Positions 30,684-38,375 of a DNA stretch of 64,000 nt are shown one piece after another; position 1 is the stretch's first letter; the number at the start of each line of letters is the position of its first letter. The stretch is from Candidatus Latescibacterota bacterium (lineage in GTDB: Bacteria > Latescibacterota > UBA2968 > SICM01). The notes below the pieces were generated by a model. That model was given only the letters and a program-made list of their open reading frames with translations. It ran no database searches and was not told the DNA's origin. A program made the translations under genes and the position numbers. The stretch lies in NCBI GenBank assembly GCA_965217865.1, contig CBDCJO010000002.1:2848001-2912000 (forward strand), read 5' to 3'.

Positions 30684-30978
30684 GGGCCCCTGGCCAGAGC
30701 TACTGGACGATCCTTCTATTCGGATTGATCGGATATCCCCATTCCCTGCAAGGCTGTGGACCTTCGTGCTGTGGTCGGATTGGAATACGATGACAACCCG
30801 TTTGAAAGCTCCTCCAAAAAATAAGAGTCCGGGCTGGTCAACAGGTTCTTCGTGGCAACATCCGGGCATCTCCTTAAACGTCCTGGGGGAGGTCTTCATC
30901 TCGGGTATCAGGGGGGTGTAAAGCGCATATGGCGGGAGGACCCACAAACACAGGGGACCTTCGGGGACGTAGTCATGG
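30680..30978 (+). pseudogene. Frameshifted, truncated N-terminus of a probable outer-membrane beta-barrel protein
   Basis: Signal-like segment, then AVVGLEYDDNPFE and RFFVATSG...LGYQGGVK in shifting frames; cut by the IS110 fragment. Confidence 0.45.
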
Positions 30979-31322
30979 CCACCACCATCCGATCCGGCCC
31001 GCAATCTTTGATGCGTCGCTCCAGATGCTGCCAGAGGGTATGGTCATATCCCGCTCGCGTCACGGGGAATGAGAAGGCCCCGCCTTGCTGAAGTCCGGAG
31101 GGATCGAGCACCGACCCGCTGTGTTTTTCCTTGCCCGGATCGATCCCGAGGACGAAATTCTGGGAGATGGCCTGTCGTTTAAGGTGGAAGATTTTCGACT
31201 TCATCGTATACCTCCAGCGTTGAGGGTTGAGTTTGCTTGCGCTTGCCGAATCTTAAGACACCTTGCCTTGCAAGGGAAGATTCAGCCCCTCAACGCTGTT
31301 TTTTCCTCCTTTACTCAATATA
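30975..31322 (-). mobile_element. IS110-family remnant (left end plus 5' transposase fragment) at an attC site
   Basis: ORF from 31204 with VLGIDPGKEKHSG (DEDD N-terminus); upstream hairpin CAGCGTTGAGGG/CCCTCAACGCTG (31215-31298); abuts AGAAATCGTTAG, the same tail as attC 32812-32902. Confidence 0.75.
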
Positions 31323-31362
31323 GAAATCGTTAGTGGCCATGCTCGAAAATTGAGGGTTATAA

Positions 31363-31842: not shown

Positions 31843-31870
31843 GCACCGAAAGCAGAAGTGACTGCACAGC

Positions 31871-31965
31871 CACTAACACCGTGCTCACGCTGCGGCGGCT
31901 TCGCAGCCTTGACCCTCCGGGCAACCTGGCTTGTGCCAGGTTCGTGAACACAGAAGCCGTTATGT
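31871..31965 (+). other. attC site 1 (95 bp)
   Basis: R'' CACTAAC, L'' GTGCTCACG, L' CGTGAACAC, R' GTTATGT; internal hairpins. Confidence 0.88.
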
Positions 31966-32811: not shown

Positions 32812-32902
32812 ACATAACACACATTTCACGGGCTTCGGTCGCGAAGCTCCCTACGCCGCAAACCTGCTTCGCAGGTTCGTGAACTGTGAGAAATCGTTAG
32901 GC
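32812..32902 (+). other. attC site 2 (91 bp)
   Basis: R'' ACATAAC, L'' ACATTTCACG, L' CGTGAACTGT, R' GTTAGGC; shares AACCTG..CAGGTTCGTGAAC with attC 1. Confidence 0.88.
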
Positions 32903-33048: not shown

Positions 33049-33636
33049 ATGACCGACACTTGGCAGCACCTGACGCCATACCAGGCAACCTGGAAGGACG
33101 AGTTCGAGGCCGAGAAGTCTAAGCTACAGCCCGTCTTCGGCGTGTCCACTTTGGAGATCGAGCATATCGGGAGTACGTCGATTGAGGGCATGCCGTCGAG
33201 GCCGATTATCGACATTGCTGTGATGATCGAGAGCTACAAGGACGCCGATGGTTTCAGCGATGCGCTAATCCAGATTGGCTACGAGCCCCCTCCGCCTCCG
33301 CATGGCAATAGCAGCGGTGGGGAGAGGTACTTCTACATCAAGTGTCACCCTCCCAAGTGTCACTTATCTATCGCGTTTGCTGATCAAGGAGGCTTCTGGC
33401 ACCGTCAGATCGTCTTCCGAGACTATTTGCGGGCGAATGAAGCGGCGCGTAAGGAGTACGCGCGACTGAAGGAGGCACTACTGCACAAGTATCCGTCTGG
33501 CCACGGCGCGCCAGCCACCGGGAAGGGCGAGTACAGCAACGGGAAGACAGAGTTCGTCTACAGGATATTGGAATCGGCTGGATGGCGCGAAGGCCAACTC
33601 TATAGGGATGAAGATCCAGACACGCCCAGCACCTAA
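33049..33636 (+). CDS. GrpB/UPF0157-family protein (cassette 3)
   Basis: IEHIGSTSIEG, PIIDIAV, FRDYLRAN, EYARLK, YSNGKTEFV; stop codon lies within R'' ACCTAAC. Confidence 0.9.
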   Translation: MTDTWQHLTPYQATWKDEFEAEKSKLQPVFGVSTLEIEHIGSTSIEGMPSRPIIDIAVMIESYKDADGFSDALIQIGYEPPPPPHGNSSGGERYFYIKCHPPKCHLSIAFADQGGFWHRQIVFRDYLRANEAARKEYARLKEALLHKYPSGHGAPATGKGEYSNGKTEFVYRILESAGWREGQLYRDEDPDTPST

Positions 33637-33637
33637 C

Positions 33638-34660
33638 ACATATTAAAGGCCCCGGGTCAAGAAAAAAAGACCCCTTCATCACGATTTTCACCGTTTTTTT
33701 GCGACCCTAACGGTCGGGACTTGCAATGAGCCGATCCGAAGAGGTTTAGCGATGTTCGGATCTTTGTCAGTCGCCAGTCTGGCTCGATTTTCACATACCG
33801 GGCTAGATGTGAGCCATCTGCACCAAACACGTATTGGAAATCAAGCGTCTCTCACGGTATTCTGTGGAGCGCCCTGGGAGAGGCTTTTCCTCTCCCTCCA
33901 GAAAATAATCGGTACCCCTTGCGACCCAATCAAGAAGGATGGCTGTTCTCCCCTTTTTGTGAGGGGGAACGCCAGTTAGGTTCGGGTTCATCGCGGGGGC
34001 AGACGGACTGACTGTCTCAGATCCGCTCATCTATGTTCTATATAAGGGGTGAAGGCGGCTTCCCAATCACAGCGGGAGAGCTGGGCTATTGTCCGGACGT
34101 TGCCCTGCCAGTTAGCTGCCGGGTTAACCGCCCCACCCATTATGCTACAAACCGTTTCTCGTCGAATGCCTGGCCACTTTTGAGCATTTGGTAGGCGGCC
34201 ACGCCGAATTTATGAGCGATGACGCTCTTGGCTTTTCCCGGACCGTGTTTGCTCTTGAGTTTCTCGTAGTTTCTATTGATCGGTTCTGACCATCGCTGAG
34301 CCACGAGGATGATTTCCGAGAAGGCCCACTTTAGGTGTGGGTTTCCGATTTTGTTATTCCCGTCCTTTGTCTTCTTCCCAGCGGACTCTCTCTCGACTTT
34401 GATCAGCCGGCTGTAGGAGGAGAAGGCTGAAGCGGATTTGAACCGTTCAACCGTGTGGATTTCATACAGGATGGTCATGGCCAGCATCTCCCCAAGTCCG
34501 GGAACCGTCATCAGGATAGACAGGGCATTGCGATCGTGATGTTTGGCCTGTGCAAGGACTTGCTTCTCGACTTTGTAGATCATTTTGTCCAGGGAGTCAA
34601 CCAGGTCCAGATCGCAGCCCACAGACATACCCAGATCTGGGTCGGCCAGACGTTCGCACG
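33638..34660 (-). mobile_element. IS110/IS1111-like remnant (3' transposase half plus long right non-coding end) at the R'' box of attC 3
   Basis: TVPGLG, RFKSASAFSSY, ESAGK, KIGNPHLKWAF; outward-facing TTGACC near the right end; attC 3 stops right after ACCTAACACA. Confidence 0.8.
33780..34138 (-). ncRNA. Candidate bridge/seek RNA with two target-like loops and one donor-like loop
   Basis: Two modules AACCCG-N3/4-CTAACTGGC...TGATTGGG (34047-34138, 33915-33999) and a third stem-loop (33782-33846) sharing TATGTG with the element end. Confidence 0.6.
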
Positions 34661-34883
34661 TGTCCTTGTGAACTGAAACCTTCAGGTTCCGGTTCAGGGC
34701 GTCCAGAGCGTAATTGACTTGCTCGGCCGCCCTTCCGGCCTCCTCCTGATCGACCTCCTGCCCGCCTTGGGGCTCTCTTTGTGTCGATCCCGATCTGCTA
34801 TCGCGTTCGACCGGCACAGGGCTGGACCCATTCTGGCGCTGAAGCCTCATCTCTCTTGCAGCAATTGCGCCGATTGTATCCAT
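34140..34883 (-). CDS. flaG: In-frame chimera: FlaG N-terminus fused to IS110 transposase C-terminus
   Basis: AAEQVNYALDALNRNLKVSVHKDT is FlaG-like and sits directly after flagellin; from ~34660 it is transposase. Confidence 0.7.
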   Translation of the reverse strand: MDTIGAIAAREMRLQRQNGSSPVPVERDSRSGSTQREPQGGQEVDQEEAGRAAEQVNYALDALNRNLKVSVHKDTCERLADPDLGMSVGCDLDLVDSLDKMIYKVEKQVLAQAKHHDRNALSILMTVPGLGEMLAMTILYEIHTVERFKSASAFSSYSRLIKVERESAGKKTKDGNNKIGNPHLKWAFSEIILVAQRWSEPINRNYEKLKSKHGPGKAKSVIAHKFGVAAYQMLKSGQAFDEKRFVA

Positions 34884-34998: not shown

Positions 34999-36168
34999 TT
35001 ACCCGAGCAGCGACAAGGCGCTTTGCGGAAGGACGTTCGCCTGAGCCAGCAAGGCCGTGCCCGCCTGGACCAGGATCTGGCTTCTCGTGAATGCCGATAC
35101 CTCGGTCGCTATGTCCGCATCCCGGATGGATGATTCTGACGCCTGAATGTTTTCGATCGTGTTCTCGTTCGACCGCATGTTGAACGAGAGGCGGTTCTGA
35201 AACGCGCCGAGGGAACCCCGCTGGTTGGCCACGGTGGAGATCGCCGTGTCAATCGTCGTGATTGCGCTCTGCGCCCCCGATTGGGTAGAGGCCGAAAGCG
35301 CGCCCAGAGACAGCTGCGTCCCCGACGCGCTCATGTCGTCGATGCTGATGTCGAGGCGGTGGACCGCCCCGTCCCTCGGACCGATCTGGAAGGAGCCTCC
35401 GGTCGCGGACGCGTCGATCTCGATGATGGTGGTGTCCAGGTCCCCGTCTGTATAACCGTTGCTCGCCGGGGAGGTCCGGACGCCCGTCAGCGTAACCTGA
35501 ATTCCCAGCCGGTCGAAGTTCGCGATGATCGTGGTGCCCGTGGCCACCTGGCTGCCGTCGAGGGCAGGCCCCAGATCGATCGTCTGCGACACGGTCCCGT
35601 TGCCCAGGGTCACCAATCCGTCATTATTAACGGTATCTTGAAACGTGTAGGTCCCCGCTGCCGCACTGGAAATCTGCACATTGATCGCACCCGTGTCATT
35701 GGATGTGGTAAGAGCCGTGGACGCGGCTTGGTCGACCGTGTTCCCGAATCCCCTCAAGAGGTTCGTGTTGTTGTAAGAAGTGACATCGGCGATCCGGTCG
35801 ATCTCCGATACGAGCTGGGTAAACTCAGCGTTGATCGAGACCCGGTTGGAGTCCGTCACAGTCGAAGAGGCGGACTGAACCGAAAGCTCCCGCATTCGGA
35901 TCAAGACCGCGTTGATCTCGTTGAGCGAACCCTCAGCGGTCTGGATCAGGTTAGTGGCCTGTTCAGCGTTTTTCACAGCCTGTCGCAGACCGGTGAGTTC
36001 TCCCCTCATCCCTTCGGACACACTCAGACCGGCTGCATCATCGGCCGCCCTGTTGATCCGCAATCCCGACGAAAGCCGCTCTATACGAACTGCCAGATCT
36101 CGGTTGTTGATACCGAGTTGCCGGCGAACGTTGAGAGACGGAATGTTATTTCTAACTCGGAGTGGCAT
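34999..36168 (-). CDS. fliC: Flagellin (sigma28 promoter)
   Basis: ERLSSGLRINRAADDAAGL, QTAEGSLNE, RGSLGAFQNRL, SESSIRDADIA, QANVLPQSALSLLG. Confidence 0.97.
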   Translation of the reverse strand: MPLRVRNNIPSLNVRRQLGINNRDLAVRIERLSSGLRINRAADDAAGLSVSEGMRGELTGLRQAVKNAEQATNLIQTAEGSLNEINAVLIRMRELSVQSASSTVTDSNRVSINAEFTQLVSEIDRIADVTSYNNTNLLRGFGNTVDQAASTALTTSNDTGAINVQISSAAAGTYTFQDTVNNDGLVTLGNGTVSQTIDLGPALDGSQVATGTTIIANFDRLGIQVTLTGVRTSPASNGYTDGDLDTTIIEIDASATGGSFQIGPRDGAVHRLDISIDDMSASGTQLSLGALSASTQSGAQSAITTIDTAISTVANQRGSLGAFQNRLSFNMRSNENTIENIQASESSIRDADIATEVSAFTRSQILVQAGTALLAQANVLPQSALSLLG

Positions 36169-36210
36169 CTGACAACCTCCTTGTCTGCCTCATACCTTTA
36201 TGAGACACTC

Positions 36211-36228
36211 TATGGCATCCTTGCCATA
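36211..36228 (-). promoter_or_regulatory. CsrA/RsmA-type hairpin in flagellin 5' UTR
   Basis: TATGGCA-AGGA-TGCCATA with GGA in the loop, ~30 nt before SD AAGGAGG. Confidence 0.7.
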
Positions 36229-36377
36229 CCGGACGTTGGCGGTGTCCGGTGTTTCGTTCGACTGGTCTTTACAACTAAACAACAAAGGCCGTCTGACCGG
36301 CCTTGATCAGAAATACAATTAGGCCTTCACCTCCTTAGAGACGCTTAATTCCGTGTGGTTTAGCTCTTTGTCCATGG

Positions 36378-36405
36378 ATATCGGCAAAATCCACACGAAT
36401 CTTTA
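36378..36405 (-). promoter_or_regulatory. Sigma28 promoter, fliC-proximal
   Basis: TAAAGATT-N12-GCCGATAT. Confidence 0.7.
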
Positions 36406-36590
36406 ATGCGATCTGCAATGATTCGGAGGCAAAAGCCCTCAAGGGGGCCGGTATGACAGCCTTTTATATAAAAAAACGGCTATTTCGATTTTATTACACT
36501 TTTTCTATACAGGTCCTCTCATATGATACGTGATTGACCCTGTTTGTGCTCAATTTAGCTGCGATGTCCGGATCAAAAGACATCAAAATT

Positions 36591-36755
36591 CAACAATAAC
36601 CCGTTTATATACAATCTATTATCCCTTTCTTCTTGTTCCTGGCGCTCACCCGCCGCCACGCGGGATAGAGGTTGTCAGATGCCACTCTGTTAATGATGCC
36701 GCCTGGATCAGAGAATTATATTAGATTGTATTATATAACTTAGTATTGTTTGGTA
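36591..36755 (-). ncRNA. Candidate sigma28-dependent structured antisense RNA against the flagellin RBS/start
   Basis: Starts just downstream of the 36762-36788 promoter; ends are complementary; interior has GAGTGGCATCTGACAACCTC, the exact reverse complement of the fliC RBS+ATG region. Confidence 0.6.
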
Positions 36756-36761
36756 TAATTC

Positions 36762-36788
36762 ATATCGGCCTGCAAATCTAAACCTTTA
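36762..36788 (-). promoter_or_regulatory. Sigma28 promoter, distal
   Basis: TAAAGGTT-N11-GCCGATAT, near consensus. Confidence 0.8.
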
Positions 36789-36978
36789 CCCTTTTTTCCG
36801 CTCTTTTCCAACCGATTCCGCCAACCTGCATCGACGGACAATCAATGTGTGCGAGCGTACCGGCGAGGTAGGGATGCAATTCAGCCTGGATTGCAGACGT
36901 GAGGACACGTTTTCGATCTTTTGTGCTGAACACTAGATGAATCAGGATGCGGGACAGGGATTGGGGGATGTGAAATTA

Positions 36979-37064
36979 TCGCGGCCTTTCAGGCCGCACG
37001 ACGGTATTGCTTTCCAAGGACCCAGGGCAGCTCGCCTGGGTTGAGGGACAACGCGCCGTTGGCG
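36979..37064. repeat. REP-like palindrome cluster
   Basis: GCGGCCT TTC AGGCCGC; ACCCAGG..CCTGGGT; GCGCC GTT GGCGC. Confidence 0.5.
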
Positions 37065-37235
37065 CTGAAAGAAGGCCCTGACTTTAGCCTCGGCTTCTCG
37101 ATTAGCTCGAAGGCCAATCGCGAAGACAGGGTCCACACGGAGAGCCAAAAAAAACGGAGAAAGAAGGTATCTTCAGTCTCCGTTAAAATGCATGATTCCG
37201 GACGTTCCCAAACTAGTCCTTTAATTTTTAATACG

Positions 37236-38375
37236 TTACTGCAACAAAGAAAGCGCAGTCTGCGGTATCGCGTTGGCCTGCACCAGGACGGCCGTCGCAG
37301 CCTGGGTTAAAATTTGTGCCCTGGTGAACTCCGAGACCTCCTCCGCGACATCTGCGTCTCGAATTGACGACTCGGAAGCTTGGATGTTTTGAATTGCGTT
37401 CTGGGTCGATGCAATCGTAAAGGACATTCTGTTTTGAAGGGCTCCGATATTGCCGCGTTCCCGAGCGATCCTATCGATCGCAACGTCGAGCCCCGATAAT
37501 GCGTTTCGGGCATTCTCCAGAGTTCCGATAGATATCGAGTTCAGGTTCAATTCCGGCCCGCTTGCCCGCATGTCACCAATGTTAAACTGGATCTGGTTAA
37601 AGACGCCTGAGTCCGGCCCCACCTGGAATGTTCCTCCGGTCCCTGCTATGACAACAAGGGTAGTCGCATCCAGATCCCCATCGGTATAGTTATCGTTTAG
37701 ATTCAGGATAATGCCAAGTCGATCGAAGTTGGCGATCGCCGTCGTCCCTGTAGCCACCTGGTTTCCGTCAAGGGCAGTGGCAATGTTGATCGTCTGTGTC
37801 ACCGTCCCGTTGCCCAGCGTAACCTGGCTGTCCGTGCTGCCAGAATCGATAAACGTATACGTCCCGGACTGTGCACCGGAGATGCTCGCGCTGGTCACAC
37901 CCACTGCTGCATTGGAAAGGGAAGTGGACAGCGTGGCGCTTACCGTGTTCCCGAATCCAACCAGGAGGACCGTGTCATTATAAGACGTCACGTTCGCCAG
38001 ACGATCGATTTCGGAGATCAGCTGGTTGTACTCAGCCGTCAGGCCCACCCGGTTGTTATCGTTGATCGTAGATGACGCCGATTGAGCGGCCAATTCTCGC
38101 ATCCGGATCAACATGGCGCTGACCTCGTTCAACGCCCCTTCGGCAACCTGAGTCAGGTTAGTGGCTTGTTCCGCGTTTCTCATCGCCTGAGTCAGGCCGC
38201 CGATCTCGGCCCGCAAGCCTTCGCTTACGGCCAGTCCGGCTGCATCGTCGGCCGACCGATTGATCCGGAGCCCGGTTGCAAGACGCTCGATCCGGGTCGA
38301 AAGCGTCTTGCTGTTCGCAGACAGCGCACGTCTGGCGCTGATCGCAGTGATATTATTGTTGACCCTGAGAGGCAT
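37236..38375 (-). CDS. fliC: Flagellin (sigma54 promoter)
   Basis: ERLATGLRINRSADDAAGL, QVAEGALNE, RGNIGALQNRM, SESSIRDADVA. Confidence 0.97.
   Translation of the reverse strand: MPLRVNNNITAISARRALSANSKTLSTRIERLATGLRINRSADDAAGLAVSEGLRAEIGGLTQAMRNAEQATNLTQVAEGALNEVSAMLIRMRELAAQSASSTINDNNRVGLTAEYNQLISEIDRLANVTSYNDTVLLVGFGNTVSATLSTSLSNAAVGVTSASISGAQSGTYTFIDSGSTDSQVTLGNGTVTQTINIATALDGNQVATGTTAIANFDRLGIILNLNDNYTDGDLDATTLVVIAGTGGTFQVGPDSGVFNQIQFNIGDMRASGPELNLNSISIGTLENARNALSGLDVAIDRIARERGNIGALQNRMSFTIASTQNAIQNIQASESSIRDADVAEEVSEFTRAQILTQAATAVLVQANAIPQTALSLLQ

Follow-up and report, generated by a model that had tools for sequence, protein, structure and literature searches.

The non-coding end of an IS110-family, IS1111-type element in the 6.4-Mb genome of Candidatus Latescibacterota bacterium is predicted to encode a bridge RNA with three loops, whereas bridge RNAs have so far been described as two-loop guides. 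One loop (A) matches insertion sites, another (D) matches the element's own ends, and the third (B) is a conserved paralog of the target loop that, in the reading we slightly favor, would act as a helper pairing with only a few core-adjacent target bases. A first-pass annotation of the window (the whole stretch of 64,000 nt analyzed here, from contig CBDCJO010000002.1, assembly GCA_965217865.1) had proposed a three-loop bridge RNA of the IS110/IS1111 type in which two loops were of the target kind, and as a predicted RNA this proposal is supported (Table 1). From sequence comparison, the three-loop architecture is real and well supported: A covaries with the target (more weakly in a second set of homologs), D covaries with the element ends, and the handshake dinucleotides of A and D match their partner DNA.

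Table 1. Features of the element remnant and its insertion site (window positions)
Feature	Position	Strand	Basis
Surviving right part (nt 614-1636) of the 1636-bp IS110-family, IS1111-type element, subtype 1	33637..34659	-	One difference from intact copy G000:C2:528532-530168
Recombinase C-terminal half (residues about 175-347), fused in frame to upstream flagellar-region ORF (starts 34883)	34140..34659	-	PF02371
Module A, predicted target-binding loop: 5' guide 34120-34111; 34078-34066 comprising 3' guide, core, and handshake dinucleotide	34047..34138	-	Tracks insertion flanks in genome and homologs
Module B, conserved paralog of target loop: 5' strand 33983-33975; 3' strand 33939-33929	33915..33999 (start about)	-	Follows only core-proximal 3-4 nt
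Donor-binding multibranch loop (D), predicted: 5' guide 33910-33901; 3' guide 33836-33826	33820..33914	-	Covariation with element ends in homologs
Small hairpin with TATGTG and 3' arm of predicted helix enclosing B and D	33775..33819	-	Minimum-energy folds; weak covariation, 1 column in 11 loci
Right end: -35-like box, subterminal inverted repeat (33652-33644), terminal bases, TG core (33638-33637)	33637..33660	-	Same in 12/12 copies retaining it; repeat matches left end
Target left half: attC R'' box overlapping cassette stop codon, plus CA core	33629..33638	+	Sequence; attC sites are restored at the corresponding junctions of intact copies
GrpB-family gene cassette whose attC took the insertion	33049..33636	+	PF04229
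Empty attC, same cassette array	31869..31965	+	attC profile
Second empty attC-like site of the cassette array	32812..32902	+	Read from sequence; not among attC-profile matches

The copy in the window is a remnant comprising roughly the right two-thirds of the element, located at the stop codon of the GrpB cassette in a small cassette array, with the left end and the RuvC half deleted. Its recombinase retains PF02371 only and has no DEDD domain, so the copy is non-autonomous; if it could move at all, it would need help from intact copies. The left junction is a real deletion because it is also present in two public runs (X10 and X15), and the identical junction there ruled out an assembly chimera at the flagellar junction.

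Sixteen copies or fragments of the element were found in the genome, nine of them full length, one internally deleted and six truncated. Two of the full-length copies belong to subtype 1, like that in the window, and seven to subtype 2, the subtypes being 94.5% identical. Intact copies (for subtype 2, for example, C2:2534053-2535687) are 1634-1636 bp long and encode a 347-aa IS110 recombinase (P0001), with 89 nt upstream of tnp and about 500 nt of non-coding DNA downstream; this arrangement and a 9-nt inverted repeat lying subterminally inside both ends are features of the IS1111 group. Membership of the IS110 family is indicated by a score of 185 bits on NF033542 (cut-off 140) and by DEDD RuvC-like and Tnp domains, with residues D14, E61, D100, and D103 read from the sequence. 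A TG/CA core is present at both junctions of the 10 two-ended copies, one of which has slipped by 2 nt, and there is no true target duplication. In homologs a -35-like box precedes the right end by 22-26 nt; a box in this position may form part of a junction promoter. No end-to-end circle joint was found among the contigs of 8 runs. Contigs from public RNA runs X1-X4 cover parts of the element at a shallow depth of 2-5 and are unstranded. The genome contains the scaffold pattern of A and B 23 times, a count equal to that of the modules in the element copies, 11 of which carry both modules and one A only. Rfam gave no match in the window, no relative of the element was seen in viral contigs, and one of 60 relatives of the host genome had a match.

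Insertion into the R'' side of attC sites, which the first-pass annotation had put forward, is borne out by sites rebuilt from the two-ended copies. The boxes of an attC are named here from R'' to R'. Five of the 10 rebuilt sites are complete attCs spanning both boxes (-0.21 to -0.31 kcal/mol per nt), and the other five have an R''-like side with no detectable R'. Sequence comparison assigns the R'' side of the site to the 5' strand of A and the spacer side to the 3' strand of A. The 11/12 match to A originally reported for the window junction (33629-33640) was an overcount, since 33639-33640 are the element's own end. The junction consists of 8 nt of target (33629-33636) and the core (33637-33638), the other half of the target having been deleted; because these 8 bases match A, B, and the A of the other subtype equally well (7/8 each), the window junction cannot separate the loops. 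A generic attC finder returned 355 noisy candidates and was discarded in favor of an attC profile, which was built from the five rebuilt sites and is biased toward attCs like those already occupied. None of the guides has a target in the genome at 0 mismatches, and the best genomic sites for B, at 1-2 mismatches, include none recognizable as an attC. Among relatives of non-attC classes (L053-L111, 32-38% identity), sites begin with ACCCC, GCACC, or TCC, and several adjoin the end of another copy, hinting at insertion beside related elements.

Both modules described after the transposase stop are present on the minus strand as quoted. The 506-nt non-coding region folds better than 100 of 100 shuffled sequences (z -4.4). 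That the modules fold as internal loops holds for B, which forms an open internal loop (z -3.3), but only in part for A, whose guide strands partly self-pair in the minimum-energy structure (z -2.1). Averaged over homologs, the unpaired probability is 0.43-0.68 for the guide strands and 0.15-0.27 for the outer stems. These stems are element-specific: an element's own arms outpair those of a same-class relative in 93/94 comparisons for A and 84/92 for B. A helix enclosing B and the donor loop appears in minimum-energy folds, and B is predicted to share one domain with D; tests of this helix gave 5.35 against 4.92 in a crude comparison, a weak difference, and in an anchored one the weak covariation entered in Table 1. 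Module B is present in all 69 + 38 parsed homologs, which were selected for having it, and the third loop persists over a recombinase identity range of 32-69% and in four target classes. It had been allowed that CTAAC might be an invariant scaffold at unrelated sites; this is not so, because in relatives with other targets both modules replace the TAA ending, switching to GGGT, GTGC, or GGA, and CTAAC is thus guide rather than scaffold. Two other roles or registers for B were rejected: pairing inside its own element showed no excess (5.93 vs. 5.85 nt), and register shifts of the B 3' strand did not improve its match to the site.

Loop D is identified as the putative donor loop by its match to the element ends. 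In the element itself, the 5' guide matches the left end at 8/10 bases and the 3' guide the right end at 7/8, followed by 2 nt that match the target flank. Across homologs the 5' guide covaries with the left end (258/396 bases vs. 221 when shuffled, 44 distinct pairs), and the 3' guide equals the right end in 15/18 distinct pairs vs. 1.2 when shuffled. The test of the 3' guide contains some circularity, since the position of the end was itself set by the best match within a short stretch following the -35 box. The hairpin at 33846-33782, to which the donor function had first been assigned, does fold (z -3.2), but the donor guides lie elsewhere; its TATGTG (33797-33792) reads TTTGTG in subtype 2 with the element end unchanged, and the hairpin was rejected as the donor loop. 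Short tandem duplications of the element right end were seen at the right ends of L016, L109, L160, L165, and L185, and the repeat in L016 begins at the donor loop 3' guide, as if the element had recombined with its own guide DNA.

The handshake dinucleotides set A and B apart. In the first homolog set, the handshake equals the left end in 62/65 elements for A and 5/65 for B, the 3' register of B being less certain in non-attC classes. Among 60 distinct attC-type elements, the donor-matching handshake AT is found in 57 A loops and in seven B loops, the remaining B loops carrying AA (30), AG (14), or AC (9); the target-matching dinucleotide TT occurs in none of the 60 B loops. The B of the window element itself belongs to the minority with AT. 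In D, the two bases after the core equal the target flank in 45/49 cases. As described in the part of the IS621 account covered here (PMC13626964), insertion is driven, and excision hindered, by handshake bases that pair once the strands have been exchanged. By analogy, the handshakes of A and D are set in the insertion-favoring way of IS621.

Within the genome, the evidence supports A as the target loop, with insertion sites following its guides. Six of the 28 subtype differences at the right end fall in the A guides and none in the B guides (binomial p 3e-4). Subtype-1 sites (n = 2, one scored in the 2-nt slipped register) match their own A at 10.5/15 and the other A at 6.5, and subtype-2 sites (n = 7) match their own A at 9.6/15 and the other at 7.3, the internally deleted copy being left out of the means. 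Own-A scores exceed those on 22 empty attCs (p 0.019 for subtype 1, 0.014 for subtype 2), whereas B scores of 6.0 and 6.1 compare with 5.6 on the same empty sites (p 0.35 and 0.19), and none of the nine full-length copies lies at a site that fits B better than its own A. Site numbers are small, and well-matched empty attCs, up to 12/15, do exist. The two subtypes, with intact copies of both caught after loop A was retargeted, offer a natural pair for the study of guide reprogramming.

The first homolog set comprised 104 foreign loci, and parsing delimited A, B, D, and the flanks in 69 of them; recombinase identity ranged from 32 to 69% and four main target classes were represented. Ten loci were dropped by name as duplicate, degenerate, or ambiguous, the rest had no downstream DNA or were unparsed, and about 35 had their indices fixed by hand after the flanks had been seen. 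Loop A matched 446/678 flank bases against a within-class null of 295, and B matched 280 against 245. At 48 full sites A was ahead in 43 and B in three, with two ties. At positions that distinguish the two loops, the flank agrees with A in 225 cases, with B in 56, and with neither in 93. Given a mismatch to A, B matched 56/232 bases vs. 60.8 expected, and so added no signal. At core-proximal positions B resembles A more than shared target class would predict (0.79 vs. 0.66 and 0.57 vs. 0.42, p 0.001, the p-values in these sets overstating significance because the homologs are related), and no such sharing was found in the first set at the distal 5' bases.

A second set of 49 further loci, mostly attC-type, was fetched to test candidate B sites, and 38 were parsed. 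It was less one-sided: A matched 179/342 flank bases (null 164, p 0.03) and B 149 (null 131, p 0.008), while at 22 full sites A was ahead in 12 and B in nine, with one tie. On the distal spacer side the loops were level (23 vs. 20). The test conditional on an A mismatch was null again (41/163 vs. 41.2). The expectation that loop sequences co-vary with insertion flanks is therefore upheld for A, with no B signal where A mismatches, and the first-pass claim that two loops share the variable attC sites between them fails: sites follow A, and both conditional tests on B are null. Pooling gave 70 full sites, 67 of which entered a mixture model after three off-register sites were dropped. Its weights were 0.70 for A, 0.034 for B, and 0.27 for neither, and the effective specificity of A was core-proximal. 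An insertion class directed by B itself, as in a dual-target bridge RNA, was not found; any role of B in choosing sites would be small, at about 3% of them.

Our preferred account, which we think a little likelier to be right than wrong, is that B is a helper within a three-loop RNA. The excised circle would form the junction promoter, the RNA would load recombinase dimers, and A and D would together drive insertion at the CA core of the attC R'' box. Loop B appears to retain the scaffold and to track the target at about 4+2+3 core-proximal bases. Variation seems unconstrained at its distal positions and at the second base of its handshake, with one post-exchange handshake pair kept. It would belong to the donor domain in an auxiliary capacity, most likely helping to hold or excise the element in an imperfectly matched site. 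Several observations sit uneasily with this account: the near parity of A and B in the second set, where the total match of B exceeds its null; three sites that fit B better than A (L023, 11 vs. 7 of 14; L128, 9 vs. 7; L158, 10 vs. 8); and the donor-matching handshake of B in the window. Against a role in excision specifically, a loop tuned for excision should show the target-matching TT, which none of the B loops does, and B and D would still give three post-exchange pairs, as in wild-type IS621. Moreover, the covered parts of the IS621 sources state that donor loops alone can support excision (PMC13626964; 10.64898/2026.08.31.748434).

The same observations nourish the main rival to the helper reading, an unlikely but serious one, in which B is a weak second target loop that would account for a few percent of insertions at other core-sharing sites, throttled by its poorer handshake and serving to explore targets. 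The mixture weight of B exceeds its permuted mean of 0.004 and only 2/120 permutations were as high, L104 joins L023, L128, and L158 as a candidate site, the second set is near parity, and B keeps a full target-loop scaffold and, in the window element, a matching handshake. Yet the likelihood gain is 0.8 units only, both conditional tests are null, and none of the full-length copies fits B better than its own A. One site has B ahead by 4 or more where 0.08 were expected (p 0.085), and the B 5' strand fits the R'' pattern in 8/34 cases vs. 26/34 for that of A.

An improbable alternative holds that B is the older target loop, retained as a scaffold for protein binding or as a template, its likeness to A arising from occasional copying and not from pairing with DNA. 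B and D are predicted to lie in one domain like that of an ordinary two-loop RNA, B is degenerate in L009 and L013, and the subtype-2 A is closer to B than the subtype-1 A is. In L158 modules A and B have nearly identical 3' strands, as well as flanking scaffold, which makes copying between modules possible, but their handshakes differ. The likeness of A and B is, however, confined to core-proximal bases, on both strands and in four target classes, a pattern that selection fits better than copying. That A and B are equal, complementary target loops jointly covering variable attC sites, as first proposed, is very improbable and largely refuted by the flank data: they share a scaffold, both switch with target class, and 9/22 second-set sites favor B, but A leads 43:3 in the first set, the mixture weight of B is 0.03, B does no better than on empty attCs in this genome, and its handshake matches in 7/60.

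The helper reading admits a broader form, which we advance tentatively and hold to be possible at best: that the target loop has split in a widespread IS110 lineage, with A reprogrammed fast for insertion and B a seed-only loop whose relaxed handshake would allow excision from imperfect sites, or sampling of new targets, by the same recombinase. If true, the split target loop would give a bridge recombinase a natural means, encoded in RNA, of controlling its direction or specificity; if B is a scaffold only, the three-loop RNA is an architectural variant of a known system. Because the handshake of the third loop differs consistently from that of the working target loop, the arrangement lends itself to a clean test by mutation.

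Comparison with described systems was made from the covered parts of the sources cited. Like IS621 and ISCro4 (PMC11208160; PMC13626964), the element has target and donor loops with two guides each around a 2-nt core, handshake dinucleotides set for insertion, and a DEDD recombinase, which gave weak hits to both the IS621 and ISCro4 structures (E 7e-8); unlike them, it has its RNA downstream of the gene, a multibranched donor loop, and a third, target-type loop. The IS1111-attC group (ISKpn4, ISPst6, ISPa21, and ISPa25; PMC11187229) likewise inserts near the R'' end of attC, and its seekRNAs share the guide region downstream of tnp, the subterminal inverted repeats, and the same order of the two target matches, although one pair of target matches is described for that group and two modules are present here. 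The core here lies directly at R'', whereas the ISKpn4 insertion point is about 5-7 nt further into the spacer (Table 1 of PMC13604230). Transposases within the IS1111-attC group are 46% or more identical (PMC11187229). In the source data of that paper, ISShfr7 and ISShwo5 are about 17% identical to ISKpn4 and ISPst6, and the ISGsu4 cluster is listed far from IS1111 names.

Recombinase motifs, judged by eye, are shared with a cluster of ISGsu4, ISGsu5, ISMahy12, ISShfr7, and ISShwo5, and P0001 is 35% identical to a protein annotated as ISGsu4-family whose locus (L129) by eye also has both modules. The different insertion point and the likeness of the protein to the ISGsu4 cluster keep the element out of the IS1111-attC group, and its lineage appears to have reached attC separately from that group. 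In the literature searched, neither a guide RNA nor a target description was found for the five members of the ISGsu4 cluster. A doubled target loop was likewise not described in the literature searched, which included the covered parts of PMC11208160, PMC11187229, PMC13626964, and PMC13604230 and of the preprints 10.64898/2026.10.21.760802, 10.64898/2026.08.31.748434, 10.64898/2026.08.14.744561, and 10.64898/2026.03.19.712850, with figures, preprint supplements, and subscription papers outside the search.

Several individual copies show features of their own. A further variant (L002:2043-2054; runs X1, X2, X4, and X11) has subtype-2-like letters in the A 5' guide plus one extra change; in X11 it lies on a long contig close to subtype 1, which suggests ongoing retargeting. 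L125 (G000:C2:1604233-1604719) is a 486-bp internally deleted copy that keeps both ends and has no guide RNA; it has a subtype-1 end, yet its attC fits the subtype-2 A on the R'' side, making movement in trans possible. In L112 (G000:C2:370698-372334) and L148 the core lies in a TG repeat and the insertion is displaced by 2 nt, which suggests register slippage. L115 (G000:C2:2463919) breaks off exactly after the B 5' strand, at the B core position, and the junction is real, being also present in runs X10 and X12. Its broken end is a GTTRRRY site on the other strand, and the sequence now flanking it is not an element end and not clearly an attC either; from the sequence, off-target recombination by an integrase and self-targeting by B are both possible.

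The surroundings of the window copy provide further observations. At 34659-34883 the deletion has placed the first part of a flagellar-region ORF in the same reading frame as the recombinase C-terminus, creating a 247-aa hybrid ORF; the upstream ORF has no Pfam match, and from its position after flagellin we take it to be FlaG-like. Beyond it, 34999-38375 holds two divergent flagellin genes, each preceded by the same 20-nt sequence (36160-36179 and 36668-36687). On the other side, at 30975-31332 on the minus strand, lies the left fragment of another repeated element, with an IS110-like N-terminus and occurrences at about eight other places in the genome; it ends at an attC R'-like box heading the same cassette array, and a second attC-associated IS110 family may share this host.
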